64,000 bases of DNA from Candidatus Competibacteraceae bacterium (GCA_046347555.1 JAXMFY010000008.1:60022-124021); one strand, 5' to 3'. Numbered from the stretch's first letter, positions 35,502-47,470 are shown. Numbers and translations: made by a program. The notes: generated by a model from the letters alone, not told the origin.

Positions 35502-36338
35502 ATGCGGACAACCCCAACCACCGGCCATGTCGTCACCTCTGGAACAGCTATTCCGCCGGGCCTCGCGCGCGCCCGGTGTCTGAATTTCATGGGGAAGGAT
35601 GATAGCGAAGAATCGGCGGTTGACACTACCGGTAGCCCCCGACCGATCGATATACGCTGCTTTGGGATCGTTTCATCGAACAACCGCCCCGATGCCCAAC
35701 AGTCCAGCCATCTTGAGGATTCCAAGTTGGACCGCCTTTTCATCTTCCTGATCGCCGGATGGTCCGGGTTTTTCGTGATGGCCCTCGAATTGTTGAGCGG
35801 GCGAATTCTCGCGCCAAGCTTCGGCAGCAGTATCCACGTCTGGGGCGGAATCATCACGGTCTTCATGCTGGCGCTGGCGCTTGGCTATCTCCTGGGCGGC
35901 CGATGGTCGTTGCGCGACCCGAGTTTGCGCCGGCTGGCGCTCATCCTGATCGCTGGAGCAACGACCACGATCCCGGTGGTTCTCCTGGGCGATCCCCTCC
36001 TCGACTGGATTTTCGACCGGGCCCAGGACCCTCGTTATGGTTCCCTCCTGTCGGCGACCTTGTTGTTCTTCGTCCCAACCACCCTGGCGGGCATGGTTTC
36101 TCCCTACGCCGTTCGCTTGCTGGTCAACCAATCCCAACTCAGCGGCCATCTCGCGGGACTTCTTTATTTTTGCTCGACGTTTGGCAGTGCGGCGGGAACG
36201 CTGCTGACGTCGTTCTATCTCGTTCTGTATTTCGAGATCAACCAGATTTTGATTGGCCTGATCGGCATTTCCCTACTTCTTGGTTTGTTGACAACTTTTC
36301 CTGGAAGCTCCAACAATGTGCCAAGGTATCCAGTTTAA
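35502..36338 (+). CDS. Polytopic membrane protein: N-terminal membrane module of the fused membrane / spermidine-synthase-like family
   Basis: About 7 predicted TM helices. Ends 23 nt inside the next ORF. Confidence 0.5.
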   Translation: MRTTPTTGHVVTSGTAIPPGLARARCLNFMGKDDSEESAVDTTGSPRPIDIRCFGIVSSNNRPDAQQSSHLEDSKLDRLFIFLIAGWSGFFVMALELLSGRILAPSFGSSIHVWGGIITVFMLALALGYLLGGRWSLRDPSLRRLALILIAGATTTIPVVLLGDPLLDWIFDRAQDPRYGSLLSATLLFFVPTTLAGMVSPYAVRLLVNQSQLSGHLAGLLYFCSTFGSAAGTLLTSFYLVLYFEINQILIGLIGISLLLGLLTTFPGSSNNVPRYPV

Positions 36339-36387
36339 GACACTGCTCGCCTTCCTTGCTTCGTTCGTGACCCTGCCATCCACCGCA

Positions 36388-37215
36388 ATGAACATCATTC
36401 ATACCGAAAAATCGCTTTATCGCAATATCCTCGTTTATGAAGAGGACGAGCAGAGATGCATGAGTTTCACTCGCCACAATCAAACCGCTCGACAAAGCTG
36501 CCAATCCCTGGATGATCCCAATCAATTCGTATTCAGTTATACCAAGATGATGATGGGCGCGCTGTATCTGAACCCTCATCCCAGGAATATCCTGATTGTC
36601 GGACTGGGAGGCGGCATCTTACCGACGGCGCTGTCCCGGATGCTGCCCGAAGCCAAGATCGACATCGTCGAAATCGACCCGGCCGTCGTCAAGGTCGCCC
36701 GACAATTCTTTGGCTTCAATCCAAATCCAAATGTCCAGGTTTTCGAGGAGGATGGGCGCGTCTTCATAAAACGCGCCGGTAAGTCCGACCGGCGCTACGA
36801 TTTGATCATGTTGGACGCCTTCGATCACGAATACATACCAGAACATCTATTGACCCGGGAATTTTTGCTCGAAGTCAAGGCTCTGTTGACCGCGGATGGC
36901 GTTTTGGCGGCCAACACCTTCTCCAGCAGTCGTCTCTACCACCACGAATCGACGACCTATCAATCAGTGTTCGGTCAATTCTACAATCTCAGGGTCGAGC
37001 TGAAGAATCGCGTCGTCCTGGCGAAAATGGATGGACTTCCCTCTCATGACGCGATCAAGAAAAACGCCGATTTGTTGGAGGAGCAGTTGAAAGTGCTGGG
37101 TTTTGGCGGCGACTGGCTGACGCCGCTGTTCTCGACCGACCGCGACTGGAATCCCGACGCGCGCGTTCTGACGGATCAGTATTCGCCATCGAATTTGCTA
37201 AATTCAGCGTTTTAG
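36388..37215 (+). CDS. Spermidine/spermine-synthase-like aminopropyltransferase-fold protein. Start could be at 36316.
   Basis: PF01564-like motifs (ILIVGLGGGILP...IVEIDPAVV...LIMLDAFD). Confidence 0.6.
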   Translation: MNIIHTEKSLYRNILVYEEDEQRCMSFTRHNQTARQSCQSLDDPNQFVFSYTKMMMGALYLNPHPRNILIVGLGGGILPTALSRMLPEAKIDIVEIDPAVVKVARQFFGFNPNPNVQVFEEDGRVFIKRAGKSDRRYDLIMLDAFDHEYIPEHLLTREFLLEVKALLTADGVLAANTFSSSRLYHHESTTYQSVFGQFYNLRVELKNRVVLAKMDGLPSHDAIKKNADLLEEQLKVLGFGGDWLTPLFSTDRDWNPDARVLTDQYSPSNLLNSAF

Positions 37216-37311: not shown

Positions 37312-40300
37312 ATGTCCGCGACCAACGACCAGAAAATACGCCAATCCCTCCTTGATGCCTACGAAGTTCTGCCCCCGCTCGAACAAGCGGTTTTGCAATT
37401 GCTGTCGGTGATTTACGAGGAAGTGGGGAAAACCGCGCTGGCCGACTGCGCGCGCCGCTGCGACGCGCCGCAAATCAAATCCAAGGGTTTCCCGCAACCG
37501 GGCCTGGTGCCCCTGCTGGACCGGTTGGTCAGCAAAAAATTGGTGGTCAAGGCCAACAACCAGTGGCTTTGCCATCGCCTGATCGTCGAGGACATCACCC
37601 GCCGGGCGGTGCGGGAAGGCCGCTTCGAGAGCATGGCCAAGGCCGTACAGGAAGTGATCAGGAACACTGGCTGGAGCGATTCGTATTTCCGCAGCTATCG
37701 GCAGGCGCTGGCCGGGTTGCGCATCGCCTTTTACCGGGGCGATGTGAAGCGCATGCAACACATTCTGGAGGTTTGCGCTAGAAACTACCCGACCGACCTG
37801 GCGCAATATCCGCCCTGGTTGCTGATCTTCAACAACCCGTTCGACCCCGACGGTTTACGCGCGCTGTCGGATGATCTGTTGGTGGAGGCACTGGCCGCCA
37901 TTTTCGCGGCGGCGGCGCGGCATTTCGAGCCGGTAGGCGAACTCATCACCCTGGGAGAAAGCCTGCTGGCCGGGAACCGCTGCGCCGACCCGTTGCGCTA
38001 TTACCTGGCGGAACAGGCGCTGCTGCGCGGCGACCGGGCGAAAGCCAGCCAGTACCTGGCTCCGCAGCCGACGGATTACAGTGAGGCCCTGCGCGGCTGG
38101 CTGGCGTTTCTGGACGGGAAGGATGAGGACGCCATCCAGCATTACGAGGCCGCGCTGAAGCTGCTCCGCAAGCGGACCGGCAAGCGCAAGATTTTCTTCG
38201 ATCATCTGGCCGGGGTGTTTTTCATTCTGGCGCTGCTGGCCAGCAACACCCCCGCCCGGTTGCGCCAAGCCCTGGATATGATGGCGCCGGTGTTCGACAA
38301 GGGCGCGCGCTATGCCTATCCCGGTCTCTATCGGAATCTGTGGCAGGTGGTGGAAGTCCAACAGGGCCAACTTCAGAGAATTGCCCCACCAGATCTGAGC
38401 GCACCGCTGCCCGCGCTCGACCGCTTTTTCCAACTGCTGGTGCTGTTCTGGCTGAACGTCGCCGACCGGCAAGCCTTGCGCGACCTGGCGAAGCCCCTGC
38501 TGAATATCGCCCAGGAGAATGGCTATCGCTGGTTCGCGGCGGAGCTGGGCGAACTGCTGCAGCGCCTGGTCGGCCCGACCTACAATTCTCCTGAACCCTC
38601 CACCCTCTCCCACAAAGGGGAGGAGGAACTGGACGGCGGGCGTCATCTCGCCCGCCTGTTCCAACTCAGGGAACCCTGGGAGCACGCCCTGAACGCGCTG
38701 CTGGAACTGACCCAGACCGGAGCGGAACCCACGGCGGCGCCGGCGACGCGGCTGGTGTGGTGGATCAGTTGGCACAAGAGCGGAAGTTGCGCGGTCAGCC
38801 CGCGCGAGCAGAAACGCGATGCCCGAGGCCAATGGACCCAGGGCCGGCCGGTGGCGCTCAAGCGGCTGCACCACGCGGAAAAGCTGGATTTTCTCACCCC
38901 TCAGGACCGCGAAATCTGTTCCACCGTGCGCGTCGACTACAGCGGCTATTACGGCCAGACCAGCTACGAAATCGATACCGCCCGGGCGCTGCCGCTGCTG
39001 GTGGGACACCCCCTGGTTTTTTGGGAGGATACGCCGGGCGTGCGGGTGGACCTGGTCAAGGGCGAGCCGGAATTGCTGATCACCCCGCAGGGTTCGCAGT
39101 GGCGGCTGGAACTGTCGCCCCAGGCAACCGCCATCGAGTCGGTGAAGGTGGTCAAGGAAACGCCGACCCGGCTCAAGGTCATCGTATTCAACGAGGCGCA
39201 CAAGCAAGTCATGGCGATCCTGGGCGACGGTCTGCTGGTGCCCGGCGCGGCCAAGGCCCGCGTGCTGGAAACGGTGGCGGCCCTGGCGAATCTGGTGACC
39301 GTGCAATCCAGCATCGGCGGCGGCGTGGAGAATCTGGAGGAAGTCGCCGCCGATGCCCTGCCCCACGTCCATCTGCTGCCCTTCGGCGAGGGGCTGAAAA
39401 TCGAACTGCGGGTGCGGCCGTTCGCCACCGGCGGTCCTTCGTATCGGCCCGGCGCGGGTGGCGAGTGGGTGATCGCCGAGATCGACGGCAAGCGGGTGCA
39501 GGCCCGGCGCGACCTGACACTGGAGCGCCGACGGGTGGCGCAAGTCGTGACCGCCGTGCCCAGCTTGTCCCGCCAGCCCACCGTCGGCGGCGAGTGGATT
39601 TTGCCCGATCCGGAAGTCTGCCTGGAGGCGCTGCTGGAACTGCAAGCCTTGGGCGACCAGGTGGTACTCGAATGGCCGGAGGGCGAGAAATTCAAGGTCA
39701 GCCACCCCGCGACCCTCGGCCAGCTTCGCCTGAGCATCAAGCGCCACCGGGACTGGTTCGACCTCGACGGCGAACTGCGCCTGGACGAGCAGGTGTTCAA
39801 CATGCGTCAGTTGCTGGAACTGCTCGAACGGGCGCCGGGCCGGTTCCTGCCGTTGGGCGATGGCCAGTTCCTGGCCCTGACCGACGAATTTCGGCGGCGG
39901 CTGGAGGAACTGCGCGGCTTCGGCGAGCCGGGCACCAAGGGTGTGCGGTTTCACCCGCTGGCGGCCCAGATGCTGGAGCCGCTCACCGCCGAAGCGGGAT
40001 CGGTGCGCGCCGACGCCGACTGGAAGGCGCAAATCCAGCGGTTGCGCGAGGCCGAGGCTTTGCAACCGGCGATTCCCTCGACCTTGCAAGCCGAACTGCG
40101 GGACTACCAGTCGCAAGGTTTCGAGTGGCTGGCGCGGCTGGCGCATTGGGGCGTGGGCGCCTGTCTGGCCGACGACATGGGGCTGGGCAAGACGGTGCAG
40201 GCGCTGACGCTGATCCTGAGCCGGGCGCAGGATGGGCCAGCCCTGGTGGTCGCGCCGACCTCGGTCTGCTTGAACTGGGTGGACGAGATTCGCCGCTTCG

Positions 40301-41469
40301 CCCCGACGTTGAACCCGATCGTGTTTGGCGGCGGCGACCGCGAGCAGACCCTGGCGCGGCTGGGACCGTTCGACCTGCTGATTTGCAGCTATGGCCTGTT
40401 GCAGCAGGAAGCGGAGCGGCTGGCGGAGCGGGAATGGCGGACTATCGTGCTCGACGAGGCGCAGGCCATCAAGAACATGACCACCAAGCGTTCCCAGGCG
40501 GCCATGGCGCTGCGCGGCGACTTCCGCATGATGACCACCGGCACCCCGATTGAGAACCACCTGGGCGAGTTGTGGAATCTGTTTCGCTTCATCAATCCGG
40601 GCTTGCTCGGCTCCCTGGAGCGTTTCAACCAGCGGTTCGCCACGCCCATCGAGCGGGATCGGGATATTCAGGCCCGCCACCGGCTCAAGCAACTGATTCA
40701 ACCCTTCATCCTGCGCCGGCTGAAATCCGAGGTGCTGGAGGCACTGCCGGCGCGCACCGAGATTCTGCGGCGGGTGGAACTGGGGCCGGAGGAAGCGGCT
40801 CTGTACGAAGCCTTGCGCCAGAAGGCGCTGGAGCGACTGGCCAAGGTGGACGACGCCGACGGCCAAAAATCTTTCCAGATTCTCGGGGAGATCATGAAGC
40901 TGCGCCGGGCCTGCTGCCATCCGAAGCTGGCGCTGCCGGAGACCGACCTGCCAGGGGCTAAGCTGGCGGCGTTCGAGGAGATTCTCGACGAGTTGCTGGA
41001 AAACCGGCACAAGGCGCTGGTGTTCAGCCAGTTCGTCGATCATCTGGCTATCCTCCGCGAGTTGCTGGACCGCAAGAAAGTGGCCTATCAGTATCTGGAC
41101 GGCAGTACGCCGGCCAACGAACGCAAGCGGAGCGTGGACGCCTTTCAGGCTGGTCGGGGCGACGTGTTCCTGATCAGCCTGAAGGCGGGTGGCCTGGGGT
41201 TGAACTTGACCGCCGCCGATTTCGTCATCCACATGGACCCGTGGTGGAATCCGGCGGTGGAGGATCAGGCGTCGGATCGGGCGCACCGCATCGGCCAGCA
41301 GCGGCCGGTGACCATCTACCGGCTGGTAGCCCAGGGCACCATCGAGGAGAAGATCGTCGCCCTGCACCACCAGAAGCGGGACCTGGCGGAACAGTTGTTG
41401 GAGGGGACCGGCACGGGCGGCCGGATTTCGGCGGAGGATCTGCTAAGGCTGCTGCAAGAGGCCGGGTAG
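37312..41469 (+). CDS. SNF2-family DNA-dependent ATPase/helicase with a ~900-aa N-terminal extension
   Basis: SNF2_N motifs DYQ, GLGKT, DEAQ.IKN and helicase-C motifs in the last 500 aa. N-terminal region has no recognised domain. Confidence 0.8.
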   Translation: MSATNDQKIRQSLLDAYEVLPPLEQAVLQLLSVIYEEVGKTALADCARRCDAPQIKSKGFPQPGLVPLLDRLVSKKLVVKANNQWLCHRLIVEDITRRAVREGRFESMAKAVQEVIRNTGWSDSYFRSYRQALAGLRIAFYRGDVKRMQHILEVCARNYPTDLAQYPPWLLIFNNPFDPDGLRALSDDLLVEALAAIFAAAARHFEPVGELITLGESLLAGNRCADPLRYYLAEQALLRGDRAKASQYLAPQPTDYSEALRGWLAFLDGKDEDAIQHYEAALKLLRKRTGKRKIFFDHLAGVFFILALLASNTPARLRQALDMMAPVFDKGARYAYPGLYRNLWQVVEVQQGQLQRIAPPDLSAPLPALDRFFQLLVLFWLNVADRQALRDLAKPLLNIAQENGYRWFAAELGELLQRLVGPTYNSPEPSTLSHKGEEELDGGRHLARLFQLREPWEHALNALLELTQTGAEPTAAPATRLVWWISWHKSGSCAVSPREQKRDARGQWTQGRPVALKRLHHAEKLDFLTPQDREICSTVRVDYSGYYGQTSYEIDTARALPLLVGHPLVFWEDTPGVRVDLVKGEPELLITPQGSQWRLELSPQATAIESVKVVKETPTRLKVIVFNEAHKQVMAILGDGLLVPGAAKARVLETVAALANLVTVQSSIGGGVENLEEVAADALPHVHLLPFGEGLKIELRVRPFATGGPSYRPGAGGEWVIAEIDGKRVQARRDLTLERRRVAQVVTAVPSLSRQPTVGGEWILPDPEVCLEALLELQALGDQVVLEWPEGEKFKVSHPATLGQLRLSIKRHRDWFDLDGELRLDEQVFNMRQLLELLERAPGRFLPLGDGQFLALTDEFRRRLEELRGFGEPGTKGVRFHPLAAQMLEPLTAEAGSVRADADWKAQIQRLREAEALQPAIPSTLQAELRDYQSQGFEWLARLAHWGVGACLADDMGLGKTVQALTLILSRAQDGPALVVAPTSVCLNWVDEIRRFAPTLNPIVFGGGDREQTLARLGPFDLLICSYGLLQQEAERLAEREWRTIVLDEAQAIKNMTTKRSQAAMALRGDFRMMTTGTPIENHLGELWNLFRFINPGLLGSLERFNQRFATPIERDRDIQARHRLKQLIQPFILRRLKSEVLEALPARTEILRRVELGPEEAALYEALRQKALERLAKVDDADGQKSFQILGEIMKLRRACCHPKLALPETDLPGAKLAAFEEILDELLENRHKALVFSQFVDHLAILRELLDRKKVAYQYLDGSTPANERKRSVDAFQAGRGDVFLISLKAGGLGLNLTAADFVIHMDPWWNPAVEDQASDRAHRIGQQRPVTIYRLVAQGTIEEKIVALHHQKRDLAEQLLEGTGTGGRISAEDLLRLLQEAG

Positions 41470-42343: not shown

Positions 42344-45310
42344 TCACCCGTTTCGCGTTCGGCGGCGGCGCGGCTTTTCGGTCGGTTCGGGAAAATCCCG
42401 GATGCGCCGCACCCACAGCGCGATGTCCGGGTCCATCCGCGCTAGCACCGCCTGCGGGTTCTTCGCTTCGTCTACTTGCGCGAGCGCCTCTAATAGGGAT
42501 GCCTGCTTGGGCGCATCCAGGGCCAATTCCGGGGTCAACAATCCCGCCACGTCGCGAATCAGGCCAGGGTCCCGGCAATCCCGTGCGAAGGTGGACACGA
42601 TATCGGAAAGCGCGGAATTCAGGGCAAGGTTGTGATTCCGGCGCAGGCCACAGAGGCGAACCACGCGCGGCAATACACCTCGGGCGGCCTCGAATCCCGC
42701 CGCCCGGCCTTCCGCCGCAGCGACACGCGCGATGGCTGCACCGACGGCGGGCCAGCGGGGAAAGCTTAGATAGCCACCACCTGCGAGTCGATCCGCTTGA
42801 CTCTCAATCAGCTTGTCCAGCGCATCCCAAGCGTGCGCCCGCACTGCGGCGGCATACAGCTCGACAAGAAAGTCTCTCCAGTCCGTTTCGTCCTCTTTTT
42901 TTGCCGCTGTCGTGTCTGATTCAACCCATTTCGCGAAGACCGCAACGGCCTCCGGAGAGGCTACATGTCTGGCAGCTATGATGGCCTGTGCTGCTGCCGA
43001 CACCGATTGTGCGAGCGCGAAAGATTGCAGCGCCCCGGACAAAGCGTCCTCGTATCGACCAGACAAGATGAGCAAACCACCTGCTTGTAGCAGGGCCTGG
43101 GCTTGCTTGCCGATACTTCCAACTTGGGCGAACAAAACGGCGGCTTGCTGTGCCATGGCGGTCGCCTCCTCGTACCGGCCCAACTGGCCTAGCGAAAACG
43201 CAGCAACTTGCAGGGCCATGGCTTGTAAGAGGGCATCTCTGGCTTGGGCAGCCAGGGCGGCAGCCTCCCGCGCCGTTCCAATCACCTCCTCATGCCGTCC
43301 CAACTCGCCGAGCGAAAAGGCGGCAACTCCCAAAGCTACGGCCTGTTCACGGACATCCCCTGTCTGGGCCGCCAGGGTGGCAGCGTCCCGCGCTGTGGCA
43401 ATGGCCTCTTCATGCTGTCTCGACTGGCCGAGAGACCAAGCGACATATCGCAAGGCTACGACCTGTTCGCTGACATCCCCTGTCTGGGCCGCCAGGGTGG
43501 CAGCGTCCCGCGCTGTGGCAATGGCCTCTTCATGCTGTCTCGACTGGCCGAGCGAAAAGGCGCGACAACACAGCGCGAAAGCTCGCAAAGGTTTGGGTAA
43601 TTCGGCTGGGATGGCATTGCCTGCCTTGTCCCAACACAGGATGGCGGCAACTTTGTCAACCCTCAGGCTGTCTAGCAAATCACCCCACTCGTACTGAAGC
43701 AGCACTTGAGCCGCCGGATTCGTATTGGCCGCAATTTCTTGGATGAGCCGCTCGTTGGCCTGGTCCATCAACTCCATACGGGCGAGCGCCTGAGCCCCAA
43801 TGATAGCGGCGGCGGCCTTGGCGATGGGCGTTGCTGGCTTCCATTGACCTATTTGATGAGCGATATCTTCGGGATGATCTTTTAGCTCGCGCAGAATCTG
43901 CTCGATGGGCACCGGAATCACCTCGTCGCAACAACTTGCAATCCGCTTCAGTCGCCAGTCGAAATACCCAAAGTAGCCGTTAAACCCATTGCCCGCCGGC
44001 ACGCCCTCACAGGCCAAGTCAGCGAAAATTCGGGCTTCGGCGGGCTGGCCCGCGTTCAGGTGCCGCATCGCTTGCACCCCTTGCTCCTCGCGTGAGTAGA
44101 AGGCGCGCAGGAAATCGAGAATGGTGGCGAGCGGCGTTTGCAGCGCGAGTTGCTGGCCCTGGCGCAGCCGGTAGAAGTGCGCGAACACCCGGTCGGTGAC
44201 GCGGTAGAGTGTCTCGCGGCCGTCCAGCGCGGGCAATCCCCGGATGATATCGGCGCGCTGCAAATCCTGCATCACCCGGGCGATGGTGTTTTGCCCCCCC
44301 GCACCGACGCGCTGGGCCAGCTCGGTCTGCGACGCCGGTTCGCCACCCCGGATCAGCGCATCGAACAGGCCCTGGGCCAGGGCGGGCAGATCGTCGATAC
44401 GCCGCCGGTAATAGTCCGCCAGCTTGTCGGCCAGCGCGTTCATGGTGGCGGCGACCGACAACGCATCCTGCGTCTCCAACACATCGGCCAACAATTGTGC
44501 CAGACGCGGGTTGCCGCCGATGAAGTCGGCTACGGCCCGCGCCTTGGCCTCCGCCGCCGCGTCCAGCGGCGCCAGCGCCTCCGCCTCGCGACGACGGTTG
44601 AAGTAGCGGATGCAGGTATCCTGCGACCAGGGTTCCAGGCGGATCGACTGAAAGGCTTGGAACAGGGGGCGGTCGTAGTCCATATCCACCGAGCCGGTCG
44701 CCGTGGCGATCAACATGATCCGGTTGCGCGGACGATCCAGCCACTTGCGCAAACGCTGCTCGGCGGCATCTTCCTTGAAGACGCCGGCGAGGAGAACATC
44801 GAAGTTTTCGATCACCACCACGACCATGCCCCGGCCCGCCGGCAAGGACTGATCGAGTTCGCGTTCAAGCTGATCCACGGCCTCGTCCCACTGGCGGGCT
44901 TCTTTCACAGGATCGGGCCACTGGAACATCGCCCCCGCCCAGCTTCGATCCTCGCTGGTGCGCAGATCGACGACCTTGTGGGCGATATAAGCCGGGAGCG
45001 CGTGGGGATTGCGCGTCAGGTTGTGCTGCTCTTCCGGCAACAGCACGAAGGGAATGGGCACGCCCCGCGCGGCGGCCAAGTCCGCAGTCTCGATCTGCAC
45101 CAGACGGGCCACGAAGGATTTGCCGAACCCGCGCGGGCCGTAAATCGCGACGTGTTGCAACGCGCCCGGCGCGGCCCCGAGGCTGCGCCGAACGGCCTCC
45201 ATGATCCGCCCGGTTTCCTGCTCGCGGCCGGTGGCGAGCGCGCGGATGGCCGCGTCGGTCATCCGATGGGTCATGAAGGTCTGGACGAGCGGAGAAGCGG
45301 GCGCGTTCAT
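42344..45310 (-). CDS. STAND-type P-loop NTPase with winged-helix and C-terminal TPR-like repeats (~988 aa)
   Basis: Walker A GPRGFGKSF, Walker B VVVVIENFD, wHTH-like segment, then repeated ~40-aa TPR-like units. True start is MNAPAS at 45310, overlapping the upstream stop by 1 nt (TGATG). The listed 1254-aa ORF has a 266-aa out-of-frame N-terminus. Confidence 0.6.
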   Translation of the reverse strand: MNAPASPLVQTFMTHRMTDAAIRALATGREQETGRIMEAVRRSLGAAPGALQHVAIYGPRGFGKSFVARLVQIETADLAAARGVPIPFVLLPEEQHNLTRNPHALPAYIAHKVVDLRTSEDRSWAGAMFQWPDPVKEARQWDEAVDQLERELDQSLPAGRGMVVVVIENFDVLLAGVFKEDAAEQRLRKWLDRPRNRIMLIATATGSVDMDYDRPLFQAFQSIRLEPWSQDTCIRYFNRRREAEALAPLDAAAEAKARAVADFIGGNPRLAQLLADVLETQDALSVAATMNALADKLADYYRRRIDDLPALAQGLFDALIRGGEPASQTELAQRVGAGGQNTIARVMQDLQRADIIRGLPALDGRETLYRVTDRVFAHFYRLRQGQQLALQTPLATILDFLRAFYSREEQGVQAMRHLNAGQPAEARIFADLACEGVPAGNGFNGYFGYFDWRLKRIASCCDEVIPVPIEQILRELKDHPEDIAHQIGQWKPATPIAKAAAAIIGAQALARMELMDQANERLIQEIAANTNPAAQVLLQYEWGDLLDSLRVDKVAAILCWDKAGNAIPAELPKPLRAFALCCRAFSLGQSRQHEEAIATARDAATLAAQTGDVSEQVVALRYVAWSLGQSRQHEEAIATARDAATLAAQTGDVREQAVALGVAAFSLGELGRHEEVIGTAREAAALAAQARDALLQAMALQVAAFSLGQLGRYEEATAMAQQAAVLFAQVGSIGKQAQALLQAGGLLILSGRYEDALSGALQSFALAQSVSAAAQAIIAARHVASPEAVAVFAKWVESDTTAAKKEDETDWRDFLVELYAAAVRAHAWDALDKLIESQADRLAGGGYLSFPRWPAVGAAIARVAAAEGRAAGFEAARGVLPRVVRLCGLRRNHNLALNSALSDIVSTFARDCRDPGLIRDVAGLLTPELALDAPKQASLLEALAQVDEAKNPQAVLARMDPDIALWVRRIRDFPEPTEKPRRRRTRNG

Positions 45311-46488
45311 CAGGCCAGCCGCGACCGCTTCCACCACAACCGGGCCAGCCGCGACGCCGGCACCCAGGTCCGGTTCGCGTCGGCGTCCTCGGTGAAGTGG
45401 ATGAAGCCATCCTCGACCAGCATATCCAGGAACTCCGCCAGATCGATGCGGGAGTAGCCGTTGGCCAGTTCGAGGTCGTCCAGCCGGGTTCCGTCCGCCG
45501 CGTCCATGATCCGTTTCAGGACCGGAACCACCAGCTTTCGTTGACCGTCCTTGTCGATTTCGCCGTAGAACTTGAACCGCTTGTTGAACTGGTTGTAGAA
45601 ATCCTCGTGCAGGACCGGACGCACGTTCTTGGCGAAAACCTCGGCGAAGGCGTCCGCTGGCGGAGGCGATTCGACGCCGACTTCCAGCAGACCCTTGACC
45701 AGAAAACTCGGATAGAGCACGCCGGATTGCTTGAGAAATTCGCTCGTGTGCTCGTCGGTCCAGCGGCCTTGCGACGGTTCCGCCGTCGCTTGGCGGATGA
45801 ATTCGCGCGCTTCGTCCTCGGTCAGTTCGGGTACGTCGAAGGGCAGCAAGTCGTTGAGATGCTCGCGGCCAAGCCCATAGCGGCGCGACAGGGCGGTGAC
45901 GCCGATGGAGCCGGTCAGCAGCATCTTCATGCCCGCTTCGCGCCATTCGCGCATGGCGGCCAGCAGTTGATCGATTTCCTCTCGCCCCTCCTTCGGGTTT
46001 TGTTCCAGGATGTTCTTCAACAAAAACGAGAATTCGTCGATGACCAGCAGCGGCGGCGTCTTGGTCGCGCGCAAGGCGTCGCGGATACCGTTGTACGCCT
46101 CCCGCCAATACGCCGATACCAGCGCCTCGCCGGTCTTGGTGCCGCTCGCCAACGCCTCCAGCACCTTTCGGATCGGACTGTCCTTGGCGACGAAACCGAG
46201 CACACGGCCTTTCAGGTCCGACTCCCTGGGCAGCGCGCCGAGCAGTTCGCCCAGCAAATCCTGAATCGATTTCAGGCCCTGGGCGTCGACAAACGCCACA
46301 GGTTTTTTAGCCGCCTGCATCTGCTCGACGACGTAGAGACGCAGGGTCGATTTGCCGATGCGGCGCAGGCCGAACATCTTGACGCCGCCGCTGCTCGCCA
46401 GCGTGCGCAGGAGCTTGTTCTGTAGCGCGGGCCGGTCGAAGCGTTGGTCGCCGGCAACGGCATTGCCGTAGAAGGGGACGAGCGCCAT
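45310..46488 (-). CDS. AAA+ ATPase of the PF01637 (archaeal/bacterial ATPase_2) type, 392 aa
   Basis: Walker A GLRRIGKST, Walker B LLVIDEFSFL, and a C-terminal wHTH-like region. First gene of a two-gene operon. Confidence 0.6.
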   Translation of the reverse strand: MALVPFYGNAVAGDQRFDRPALQNKLLRTLASSGGVKMFGLRRIGKSTLRLYVVEQMQAAKKPVAFVDAQGLKSIQDLLGELLGALPRESDLKGRVLGFVAKDSPIRKVLEALASGTKTGEALVSAYWREAYNGIRDALRATKTPPLLVIDEFSFLLKNILEQNPKEGREEIDQLLAAMREWREAGMKMLLTGSIGVTALSRRYGLGREHLNDLLPFDVPELTEDEAREFIRQATAEPSQGRWTDEHTSEFLKQSGVLYPSFLVKGLLEVGVESPPPADAFAEVFAKNVRPVLHEDFYNQFNKRFKFYGEIDKDGQRKLVVPVLKRIMDAADGTRLDDLELANGYSRIDLAEFLDMLVEDGFIHFTEDADANRTWVPASRLARLWWKRSRLA

Positions 46489-46598
46489 GGCTTCATTCCT
46501 ATATGCCAGAAGAGATATCTGATTTATAGCATATCAAAATCCTGGCCGCAACTTTGCTATACTATAAAAAAGATATCTGAAAGAAAGGATAACACAAT

Positions 46599-46725
46599 GA
46601 TGGGTTTCGCTACGCTCAACCCATCCTACGAAAAACCAATGGGTTGTAGGATGGGTTTACGAAAAACCAATGGGTTGTAGGATGGGTTTACGAAAAACCA
46701 ATGGGTTGTAGGATGGGTTGAGGAA
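46599..46725. repeat. 31-bp tandem direct repeat (ACGAAAAACCAATGGGTTGTAGGATGGGTTT) x ~3.3, each unit with internal dyad symmetry
   Basis: Exact tandem copies at 46628, 46659 and 46690, plus a partial leading copy. No spacers, so not CRISPR. Confidence 0.6.
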
Positions 46726-46867
46726 CGAAACCCATCGATGCAGGGCGAAACCACCAGGAGATTTGAGCGGTTACGGATAGGCATCCCGCCAAGCGATGGT
46801 ATTCGTGGGCGATGAAGCCGAGCGGCATATAATGTTCCATAACATGGCGACATCGGGGAATCTCCCT

Positions 46868-47470
46868 ATGAATACGACAGCGACACTTGGCGACATCTGG
46901 GCATTGTTCCAAGAAACCGACCGCCTGCTGCGGGAGCAGTCTCAGGAAACCGACCGCAAGTTCCAGGAAACCGACCGCAAGTTCCAGGAAACCGACCGCA
47001 TGATCAAGGCACTGGGTCAGCAAATCGGTGGCTTGGGCAACAAGTTTGGCAGTTTCACCGAAGGACTGGCTCTGCCCTCGATGCAAAAGATTCTCCGGCA
47101 ACGCTTTGGCGTCGATACGATCAGCCCCAGCGTGCGACTGTCCCGCGAAGGGCAACACCTGGAAATCGACGTGCTGGCCTATGCCAACGGGACCGTCAAC
47201 GCCGCCTATGTCGTGGAAGTCAAAAGCCATCTACGGGAGAAGGATATCGAGCAGTTGCTGAACATCCTGCAACGGTTCCCGGACTGGTTCCCCGAACACC
47301 GGAACAAGGCGCTCTATGGGATACTGGCCGGGGTGGACATCCCCGACGCACTGATTCCGCAAGTATTGGCGCGGGGGTTGTACCTTGCGTACATTCACGA
47401 CGACCTGTTCGAACTACAAGTCCCCGAGGATTTTCAGCCGCGTCGGTTCGATGTCATGACCGTGACTTGA
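46868..47470 (+). CDS. PD-(D/E)XK-fold (restriction-endonuclease-like) protein with an N-terminal QETDRKF heptad coiled coil (DUF3782-like)
   Basis: EIDVLAYANGTVNAAYVVEVK matches the E-x-D...E-x-K nuclease core. N-terminus has QETDRKFQETDRKFQETDR repeats. Confidence 0.45.
   Translation: MNTTATLGDIWALFQETDRLLREQSQETDRKFQETDRKFQETDRMIKALGQQIGGLGNKFGSFTEGLALPSMQKILRQRFGVDTISPSVRLSREGQHLEIDVLAYANGTVNAAYVVEVKSHLREKDIEQLLNILQRFPDWFPEHRNKALYGILAGVDIPDALIPQVLARGLYLAYIHDDLFELQVPEDFQPRRFDVMTVT

Follow-up and report, generated by a model that had tools for sequence, protein, structure and literature searches.

The genome of a Candidatus Competibacteraceae bacterium (GCA_046347555.1, JAXMFY010000008.1:60022-124021) contains a two-gene operon that encodes a pair of related P-loop NTPases and is preceded by a conserved pair of operators. 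The stretch of DNA that was analyzed, called the window here, is 64,000 nt long, and positions are counted from its first letter. Gene 1 (45310..46488, minus strand) encodes a 392-aa PF01637/MNS-like ATPase that comprises a nucleotide-binding domain (NBD), a helical domain, and a winged helix and is sensor-less. Gene 2 (42344..45310, minus strand) encodes a 988-aa STAND-type NTPase. The locus is read, tentatively and at somewhat less than even confidence, as a self-contained, horizontally mobile operon in which two paralogous STAND/ORC-type P-loop NTPases form a sensor-helper pair with an operator of their own. The pair represents a STAND-TPR switch family that is set apart by its obligatory pairing with an MNS-type paralogue, the lack of an effector, a C-terminal domain specific to the family, and an operator that co-evolves with the proteins. 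An earlier note on this DNA described the two NTPase genes, together with a divergent neighbor, as a candidate defense or surveillance module. The conserved operator pair was absent from its account and is new here.

The two genes share one nucleotide. A TGATG stop/start overlap is located at 45308..45312 on the minus strand, where the junction reads CCTGATGAA and a single A is common to the TGA stop codon of gene 1 and the ATG start codon of gene 2. The overlap implies translational coupling, and the junction bears out the earlier description of a real coupled operon for two P-loop NTPases. The Walker motifs named in that description were likewise all located in the translations: Walker A GLRRIGKST (46345-46371) and Walker B LLVIDEF (46030-46050) in gene 1, and Walker A GPRGFGKSF (45113-45139) in gene 2, where VVVIENFD occurs further along, all on the minus strand. 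Residues K46 and D151 are invariant among gene 1 homologues, as are K64, E168, and D171 among those of gene 2. An Rfam scan of the operon locus gave no match.

The pairing of the two genes is widely conserved. A scan of one genome per species yielded 47 loci, and ids such as L001 and L002 denote these individual genome loci with a homologous pair. A gene 2 homologue was found immediately 3' of a gene 1 homologue, on the same strand, in 41 of the 47 loci; the remaining six are contig ends or degraded copies. The junctions in L001-L011 consist of a 1-nt overlap or a 2-11 nt gap or overlap, as inferred from tblastn coordinates, and those of L048 and L049 consist of a 4-nt overlap and a 2-nt gap, respectively. 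Carriers include alpha-, beta-, and gammaproteobacteria, Acidobacteria, and Gemmatimonadaceae, and the pairing persists at 25-35% identity in Rhizobium, Hydrogenophaga, Acidobacteria, Gemmatimonadaceae, and Alteromonadaceae. Complete genomes with the pair include those of Rhizobium sp. CECT 9324 (CAKKMZ010000001.1), a member of the Rhodospirillales (OY770029.1), and Ca. Thiodictyon syntrophicum; Alloyangia pacifica DSM 26894 and Pararhodospirillum oryzae NBRC 107573 are culturable carriers. Transfer between Competibacter and Accumulibacter is visible at 82% identity of gene 1. A search of 5.8 billion protein clusters yielded 223 gene 2 relatives and 113 gene 1 relatives; nearly all of these are unnamed or called ATP-binding, TPR, or hypothetical proteins, and many lie on shared contigs. 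A protein from a Candidatus Competibacteraceae metagenome-assembled genome matches gene 2 with 100% identity.

The pair also occurs, reduced to a minimal form, on the Clostridium tagluense plasmid pCM022-183 (NZ_CP086156.1; L051 7986-10746). The gene 1-like ATPase of this plasmid shares 22% identity over 97% of the query and matches PF01637 with 32.8 bits. Its gene overlaps by 11 nt with a gene for a 530-aa protein that aligns to gene 2 residues 29-425 (E 4e-23). The 530-aa protein comprises the NBD, helical domain, and winged helix, and is without a TPR array or C-terminal domain. The Clostridium pair has weak Pfam matches to nSTAND_NTPase5, NACHT, and MarR, and upstream of it an inverted repeat, CTTGACAAAA-caa-TTTTTGTCAAG, lies across the -35 element.

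Gene 1 contains nothing beyond the NBD-helical-winged-helix module. Its match to the Pfam family PF01637 (ATPase_2) scored 21.5 bits, under the gathering threshold of 33.2, and PF01637 matches are precomputed for some of its homologues. The fold agrees with those of two solved PF01637 members, the archaeal MNS-type proteins SSO1545 (2FNA) and PAB2304 (2QEN). Gene 1 differs from them in being bacterial, in its low identity to them (16-18%), in its sub-threshold Pfam score, and in being coupled to a TPR-bearing paralogue and an operator. The C-terminus (...SRLARLWWKRSRLA) is kept among its homologues. A profile comparison of gene 1 with the N-terminal module of gene 2 by hhalign gave E 3.8e-5 over 270 colinear columns, and because of this colinear alignment the two proteins are considered distant paralogues with the same three-domain core. 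Furthermore, both match Orc1/Cdc6 structures, including 2qby (the Cdc6-1/Cdc6-3 heterodimer on origin DNA) and 2v1u (ORC1-DNA). The residues ahead of Walker A correspond in both proteins to the usual N-terminal helix of such ATPase domains; in gene 2 the AAA_16 match begins at residue 28, and the residues up to there are conserved.

Gene 2 adds a sensor and a C-terminal domain to this core. Its AlphaFold (AF2) model, with a predicted local distance difference test score of 87, places the NBD at residues 1-250, the helical domain and winged helix at 251-440, and an arm or linker at 441-560. These are followed by a TPR-like sensor at 561-770 and a family-specific helical C-terminal domain with a basic tail at 771-988. 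The winged helix-turn-helix (QTELAQRVGAGGQNTIARVMQDLQRADIIRG...LYRVT) is MarR-like and maps to residues 328-372 (44195..44329, minus strand) by AF2 secondary structure; it falls within the best-conserved segment of the protein, residues Q340 and A344 are invariant, and gene 2 homologues have Pfam MarR_2 and HTH_20 matches. The criteria for a STAND protein include an NBD followed by a helical domain with a GxP motif and a winged helix, which together form the NOD, a winged-helix His on the ADP phosphate (MHD-type), and a C-terminal repeat sensor made of TPR, WD40, or LRR units (Leipe, Koonin & Aravind 2004). Both proteins have the Walker motifs and the domain order, and gene 2 has the C-terminal repeat sensor. 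A GxP-type motif (GGNPRLA) is present in gene 2, and its winged-helix His H378 (VFxHFY) is kept in at least 90% of sequences; gene 1 has no counterpart of this His. The top Foldseek matches of gene 2 were 6mfv, a STAND-TPR protein, followed by Avs3 (8dgc, E 1.3e-7). These results confirm the STAND NTPase-winged helix-TPR architecture, including the winged helix itself, that had been read from the sequence earlier.

The C-terminal all-helical domain of gene 2 (42347..43000, minus strand) carries the motifs GRAxGF, CRDPGLLRDVAGLL, and LARMDPDxAxxxRRxRDxPEP and ends in the basic tail KPRRRRTR. A profile of this domain found 167 matches among 1.84 billion representative proteins. Those of full length (~850-1290 aa) all align through their C-terminal part; the others are fragments or shorter proteins. 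The small number of carriers and the C-terminal placement in full-length proteins indicate that the domain defines a rare family, and its motif is kept in distant gene 2 members. It has no match among PDB sequences. Pfam searches of gene 1 and gene 2 detected AAA domains only, and the statement in the earlier note that the pair has no obvious effector domain thus stands, given that no conserved neighbor supplies one. Sequence searches of PDB with the two proteins returned nothing but designed repeat proteins and a match to the RecA P-loop that is spurious.

In one subfamily the C-terminus of gene 2 is extended. In L032 (13873-15216), L033 (5931-7271), L037 (4254-5597), and L038 (13756-15099), the basic tail is replaced by a fused C-terminal domain of ~225 aa with the motif ...DPDLALRPCVV.P....FAGLPL.... 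This domain has no Pfam, PADLOC, or PDB match and one homologue only among 5.8 billion proteins; it is a candidate output or effector domain of this subfamily. A separate 225-aa gene in L032 and L038 was ruled out, as the domain is a C-terminal fusion without an in-frame stop. Likewise, apparent downstream genes in L018, L030, L035, and L040 proved to be the C-terminal ends of gene 2 homologues.

Upstream of gene 1, an alignment revealed a block of ~115 nt that is almost identical across Competibacter, Contendobacter, and Accumulibacter (L001-L004 and L007). The block contains two copies of a composite element, around a promoter-like element, each consisting of a palindrome, CAGATATCT, followed after eight nucleotides by GATAG or a GATAG-like half-site. 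The proximal composite operator (CAGATATCTCTTCTGGCATATAGG) is located at 46498..46521 on the minus strand, with its palindrome AGATATCT starting at -32 of the gene 1 ATG. This operator and the predicted transcription start overlap, as do its half-site and the Shine-Dalgarno sequence. The distal composite operator (CAGATATCTTTTTTATAGTATAGC) is located at 46556..46579 on the minus strand, with its palindrome starting at -90, and abuts the -35 element. Between the two lies a putative promoter-like element, read from sequence (46523..46551, minus strand), that consists of TTGCGG (46546-46551), a 17-nt spacer, and TATAAA (46523-46528) and is kept in the upstream alignment. A consensus scanner did not report it because its -35 matches at only three of six positions.

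The palindrome is strongly enriched at this position. Across 46 loci, exact AGATATCT occurred 46 times in the 200-nt segments upstream of gene 1 (9.2 kb) versus 5 times in the remaining 715 kb, which is an enrichment of ~700-fold. It was present in 24 of the 46 loci, 21 of which had two or three copies, mostly 57-58 nt apart, and one-mismatch forms bring in more loci. The sequence varies among subfamilies and the layout does not change: L032, L037, and L038 carry the variant TGATATCA..TGATAG, and Thiodictyon-type loci carry YGATATCT..YGATAG. In L024, L027, L043, and L044, unrelated palindromes occur in the same layout. The only operator sites in the window are those at 46498-46521 and 46556-46579. 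Two additional copies of AGATATCT 9 kb upstream in L011 were rejected as regulon sites, being coincidental occurrences within tandemly repeated coding sequence.

What binds the operators? All-against-all clustering of the flanking open reading frames of the 47 loci identified no shared third gene or effector. No gene co-travels with the pair, and the site differs between protein subfamilies. The simplest candidate for the binder is therefore a winged helix encoded by the operon. The pattern points to autoregulation by such a winged helix, which would be encoded in one of the two genes. The MarR-like winged helix of gene 2 is the likelier candidate for the operator reader. The winged helix of gene 1 is acidic and that of gene 2 is polar or basic at the start of the recognition helix. 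According to Pfam and the model, gene 2 has no LuxR- or ArsR-type DNA-binding domain, and the winged helix of its NOD is its sole helix-turn-helix.

The sensor half of gene 2 appears to have a different history from the core. The array of 40-residue TPR-like units (consensus AWSLGQLGRHEEAIATAREAAALAAQAGDVGEQAVALRLA) spans 43001..43630 on the minus strand and includes a recently duplicated pair at residues 584-663. Tandem Repeats Finder identified a 120-bp unit repeated 3.3 times at 43165-43558. The units at residues 584-623 and 624-663 share 90% identity in DNA and 85% in protein. This confirms a recent internal duplication, and the long TPR-like array with a duplication that was noticed earlier is as described. 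Gene 2 homologues vary in length in steps of ~40 aa (851/871/911/952/991), which reflects a variable copy number of the array, and two homologues are entirely without the arm and array. Within the 40-residue unit the structural positions are almost fixed, and variation falls at positions 2, 6, 15, 16, 22, 25, 26, 30-32, 35, 38, and 39. Positions 31/32, 35, 38/39, and position 2 of the next unit follow the 3-4-residue spacing of one helix face.

A comparison of close gene 2 homologues with the window protein gave identities of 86-96% for the NBD, 92-97% for the helical domain and winged helix, 65-77% for the arm/linker, 26-66% for the TPR array, in which units are gained and lost, and 67-78% for the C-terminal domain. 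Ratios of nonsynonymous to synonymous divergence (dN/dS, Nei-Gojobori estimates) were 0.14-0.23 in gene 1. In gene 2 they were 0.06-0.25 over the core and 0.15-0.39 over the arm, TPR array, and C-terminal domain. Both genes are thus under purifying selection throughout. However, both dS and dN rise 3-5-fold in the C-terminal half of gene 2; for L001, dS is 0.55-0.94 in the C-terminal half versus 0.13-0.32. Because synonymous divergence is raised too, the sensor half is a mosaic that has been exchanged by recombination and is not just fast-evolving. Positive selection on the sensor, in its simple form, is ruled out by dN/dS below 0.4 everywhere together with the raised synonymous divergence.

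The genomic context of the pair is variable. The neighbor scan covered the 118 nearest genes of ~40 loci, two genes per side, as summary counts only. No Pfam or PADLOC family occurred in more than 2 of the 118 nearest neighbors, and defense genes were not enriched. The only PADLOC models listed for these neighbors were UvrD-helicase models (GajB/RTasHel), each at no more than 2 of 118 and arising from two UvrD helicases. Transposases (DDE_Tnp_1) also made up 2 of the 118. In Rhizobium sp. CECT 9324 the pair is flanked by a PPDK gene and by a small unannotated gene adjoining a MarR-family gene. In a Thiodictyon-related contig the pair has PfkB on its downstream side and, on its upstream side, two small genes together with rpe and other housekeeping genes. 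The flanks are not conserved across loci, so the pair is not embedded in conserved housekeeping synteny, the arrangement that the earlier note had said would speak against its proposal. As to its question about context, the pair is mobile with unconserved flanks, and the 118 neighbors show no association with defense islands.

Copies of the pair decay frequently. Decayed, truncated, or disrupted copies were found in L016, L017, L019, L031, and L045. Candidatus Accumulibacter meliphilus UW-LDO-IC has an intact pair (L005) and a second copy (L019) that is cut after gene 1 residue 144, and both share the operator pair at -89 and -32. In L031 (9470-11736; CALGOO010000307.1, an uncultured Competibacteraceae), gene 1 residues 84-332 are replaced by an EcoRV-type restriction-modification cassette that encodes an EcoRV-family endonuclease (PF09233, 400 bits) and a D12/Dam-class methyltransferase (PF02086, 162 bits). 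The distal GATATC operator is missing in this locus and the proximal one reads CATATATCT, so both operator EcoRV sites (GATATC) are gone. The gene 2 frame of L007 ends at 556 aa and similarity goes on in another frame, which reflects either a frameshifted pseudogene or an error in the long-read assembly.

How would such a pair work? In the favored model, one of the operon's winged helices, more likely the MarR-like helix of gene 2, would bind the palindromes, and the resting ADP-bound protein or complex on the operators would keep operon expression low. When the TPR array captures a protein or peptide ligand with its variable face, autoinhibition would be relieved, as in PH0952 and MalT. Binding of ATP and co-assembly of the gene 2 protein with the gene 1 protein would follow, for which the Orc1/Cdc6 heterodimer and sensor/helper NLR pairs offer comparable cases of two paralogues, and the output would occur at the level of DNA, either as changed transcription or as occupancy by an ATP-bound oligomer. 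An output at the DNA level is considered most likely because no enzymatic effector is present. The most likely biological context is conflict or surveillance of an immunity-like kind, because the sensor is mosaic and exchangeable, the family is rare, it is transferred between classes, and it decays frequently; a defense role is plausible as a hypothesis.

Several points weigh against this model. The winged helix of a canonical STAND protein clamps ADP and does not bind DNA. The recognition-helix motif of gene 2 (Q-S/N-x-I/V-A) is constant where operators differ, and an attempt to assign the operators to one winged helix by co-variation did not tell gene 1 and gene 2 apart. A host factor may bind the palindromes instead, but this would fit poorly with their co-variation across phyla. 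The complex of the two proteins is predicted from coupling and co-inheritance alone. The conflict role in particular is disfavored by the absence of an effector domain in either protein and by the lack of any match for them in PADLOC, NCBIfam, and PHROGs. The neighbors are mostly housekeeping genes (KdpA, TGT, QueA, MetH, XseA, UvrD, and TonB-dependent receptors), no copies of the pair were found in INPHARED phages or IMG/VR viral contigs, and plasmid copies are limited to two very distant matches. The locus also resembles its host in composition. GC content at third codon positions (GC3) is 0.82 in gene 1 and 0.84 in the N-terminal module of gene 2, equal to that of host genes, which rules out recent acquisition as judged by composition, and the window around the pair is ordinary chromosome with no composition break at the locus.

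A more specific version of the model, considered quite unlikely, is that the pair is an effector-less bacterial "paired NLR" in which the sensor (gene 2) and the helper (gene 1) co-assemble on the palindrome and the ATP-driven, DNA-bound hetero-oligomer is itself the output. In response to a variable foreign protein, such an oligomer might block or rewire transcription or replication. Plant sensor/helper NLR pairs are similar in that adjacent paralogous NOD genes include one with a variable sensor. The analogy is one of architecture only: homology is limited to the STAND core, the interaction between gene 1 and gene 2 is putative, and no cell-death output is known here.

An alternative that is unlikely is an Avs-like antiphage STAND system whose TPR array recognizes a phage protein and whose oligomerization triggers cryptic killing and abortive infection. 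The killing activity might reside in the C-terminal domain of gene 2, in gene 1 itself, acting by DNA coating or ATP burning, or, in one subfamily, in the 225-aa domain fused to gene 2 in L032, L033, L037, and L038. Like Avs and other bacterial NLR-like proteins, gene 2 is a STAND NTPase with a helical-repeat sensor, and Avs3 is its second Foldseek match. In both cases the sensor half is exchanged by recombination, here with variable copy number, and the distribution is sporadic with horizontal transfer, as between Competibacter and Accumulibacter. Frequent pseudogenes and the replacement of the middle of gene 1 by an EcoRV restriction-modification cassette in L031 would also fit. However, the pair differs from Avs in having no effector, PADLOC match, or defense island, in having two NTPases and not one, and in having its own operator. 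Neither close nor distant members gave a PADLOC match to a defense family; in distant members, matches were either absent or weak ones to winged-helix, TPR, or ATPase (mad8) models. Phage and viral collections contain no copies, and the C-terminal domain is all-helical and resembles a continuation of the solenoid in the model. A census of prokaryotic STAND proteins tied 198 of 589 clades to defense, based on effector domains or on neighborhood enrichment over a baseline of 0.0153, and found that cell death required the effector domain in the tested Avs families (Lee et al. 2026). On present data the gene 1-gene 2 clade would not qualify as defense-associated in this census. The defense role proposed in the earlier note draws on patchy distribution, transfer, a mosaic sensor, and decay, and is opposed by the neighbor, PADLOC, and phage or viral searches; its statement that no named defense system matches was upheld by PADLOC, NCBIfam, and PHROGs. 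Searches of papers and supplements for homologue accessions returned nothing, and no curated model, paper, or solved structure covers the family.

Also unlikely is a ligand-responsive STAND transcription factor of the MalT/PH0952/LAL type that would control itself and unlinked host genes with gene 1 as a co-regulator. PH0952 (PDB 6MFV), the best full-length structural match of gene 2, is a STAND-TPR protein and predicted transcription factor that is autoinhibited by its sensor. PH0952 and MalT share with gene 2 the NBD-helical-winged-helix core followed by an arm and TPR sensor, as well as a tie to sequence-specific DNA sites, and the mechanism put forward above takes their sensor-mediated autoinhibition as its model. 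A sequence-specific operator around the pair's own promoter, a MarR-like winged helix, and flanks of housekeeping or metabolic genes would all suit a regulator. But PH0952 has an N-terminal ArsR domain and MalT a C-terminal LuxR domain, whereas gene 2 has no separate, dedicated DNA-binding effector domain. Unlike either protein, it has a family-specific C-terminal domain, a sensor-less paralogue as a partner, and a mosaic sensor of variable copy number, and its only known (putative) target is its own promoter. Conserved adjacent target genes are absent from the 47 loci. The window has no more operators, and the 715 kb of flanks contain five isolated 8-mers, two of them in a repetitive coding region. 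A fixed ligand sits poorly with a recombining, copy-variable sensor, as does integration in a host regulon with extreme rarity and cross-phylum transfer. It is very improbable that the two proteins are ORC/Cdc6-like initiators beside an origin-like element, either left over from a cryptic replicon or mobile element or forming its core. Like the ORB elements that adjoin archaeal cdc6 genes, repeated palindromes flank a 58-nt AT-rich spacer immediately ahead of gene 1. Orc1/Cdc6 proteins (2QBY, 2V1U), which both proteins match, likewise combine AAA+ and winged-helix domains, possibly act together as two paralogues, and have inverted repeats by their own gene. The present pair differs in having no replication context, in the 550-residue sensor and C-terminal domain of gene 2, and in sites that bracket a promoter and ribosome-binding site; it is also bacterial, rare, and non-essential, the last because copies decay. 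No helicase, integrase, partition, or transfer genes are linked to it, transposases are 2 of 118 neighbors, and the loci lie within ordinary chromosomal gene arrays with no composition break. An operator fits better than an origin, given the promoter-like element in the spacer and the overlap of the proximal site with the ribosome-binding region. A pair of AAA+ regulators of transposition or recombination, of the TnsC/TniB/MuB/IstB type, is close to refuted: no transposase or TniQ partner accompanies the pair (the same DDE_Tnp_1 count), no terminal repeats were seen around it, and the matches to PF01637-type ATPases, NLRs, and ORC are clearly better.

The earlier note had included in the module a PD-(D/E)XK gene transcribed divergently from the pair. 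This gene (46796-47470, plus strand) encodes a 224-aa protein whose N-terminal coiled part matches Pfam DUF3782 with 30.7 bits. Its divergent orientation, the QETDRKF repeat, encoded by a perfect 21-bp repeat of 2.8 copies at 46943-47000, and a repeat-rich spacer with three copies of a 31-bp unit are as described. A PD-(D/E)XK fold is plausible only, as suggested by an E..D..ExK-type motif (EID...VVEVK) and a weak PADLOC match to CARF_PDDEXK (E 0.0017); the protein has no PDB sequence match. Its place in the module did not hold up. The DUF3782 gene lies beside the pair only in L001, L002, and L031, three close Competibacteraceae relatives; it is absent from the other 44 loci, including the 94%-identical Competibacter copy L007. 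A lyase, an SDR, and an SNF2 helicase gene adjoin the pair in the same three loci only, and the flanks of L007 differ. The DUF3782 gene, SNF2 helicase, and SDR were therefore rejected as module members, their conservation being confined to the closest relatives. Alignment of the DUF3782 protein with its L001 and L031 homologues takes 232 columns for 224 aa, an indel of ~8 residues that possibly falls in the 21-bp repeat. A 45% identical protein is encoded on a plasmid of Sulfuricystis multivorans.

The spacer between the operator region and the DUF3782 gene contains a perfect tandem repeat of three 31-bp units (TACGAAAAACCAATGGGTTGTAGGATGGGTT) at 46627-46719. The repeat lies within a larger imperfect palindrome, ...GGGTTTCGCTACGCTCAACCCATCCTAC ... 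GTAGGATGGGTT...GAAACCCATC..., with flanks at 46590-46745. The 12-mer GTAGGATGGGTT has four copies in this region and none elsewhere in the window. L002 and L031 carry an apparent single-unit version of the 31-bp element in the aligned portion. The element looks like a repetitive extragenic palindromic (REP) or miniature inverted-repeat transposable element (MITE) type and has no Rfam match. In L001 (8576-9880, Contendobacter), a gene for a cyclic-nucleotide-binding K+ channel lies between the DUF3782 gene and gene 1, where the window has the 31-bp repeat, which makes this spacer a variable spot.

Beyond gene 2, the SNF2-family helicase gene (37312-41469, plus strand) encodes 1385 aa and matches PADLOC DpdE/ZorD models with up to 633 bits. 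It falls well short of all NCBIfam equivalog cutoffs (468 versus 1200 bits for helic_SCO1167, its best model, and 44 versus 500 for DpdE), no dpd or zor partner is adjacent, and the SDR gene follows it. The helicase is probably stand-alone, and its PADLOC match is not to be read as a defense system. The stretch at 35502-37215 has a lower GC content (0.52-0.58) and a GC3 of 0.66-0.69 versus ~0.83 in neighboring genes. It contains an open reading frame without a Pfam match and a spermidine-synthase-like methyltransferase, and may be an insertion; it is unrelated to the pair.

The wider impact of this computational finding on a rare family is uncertain. In the census of Lee et al. (2026), the gene 1-gene 2 family sits among the STAND clades that are not tied to defense. 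Its operator is a direct experimental handle on PF01637/MNS ATPases, whose structures date from 2006-2008 and whose function has been obscure ever since. If the pair is immune in function, it would be a bacterial NLR able to signal without an enzymatic effector. If it is regulatory, it would be a STAND protein whose own winged helix reads DNA, like Orc1/Cdc6. The paired NLR, if true, would provide the first function for PF01637/MNS ATPases and would represent a living intermediate between Orc1/Cdc6 DNA binders and NLR-type receptors. Either the immune or the regulatory outcome would inform how NLRs evolved from DNA-binding AAA+ ancestors.

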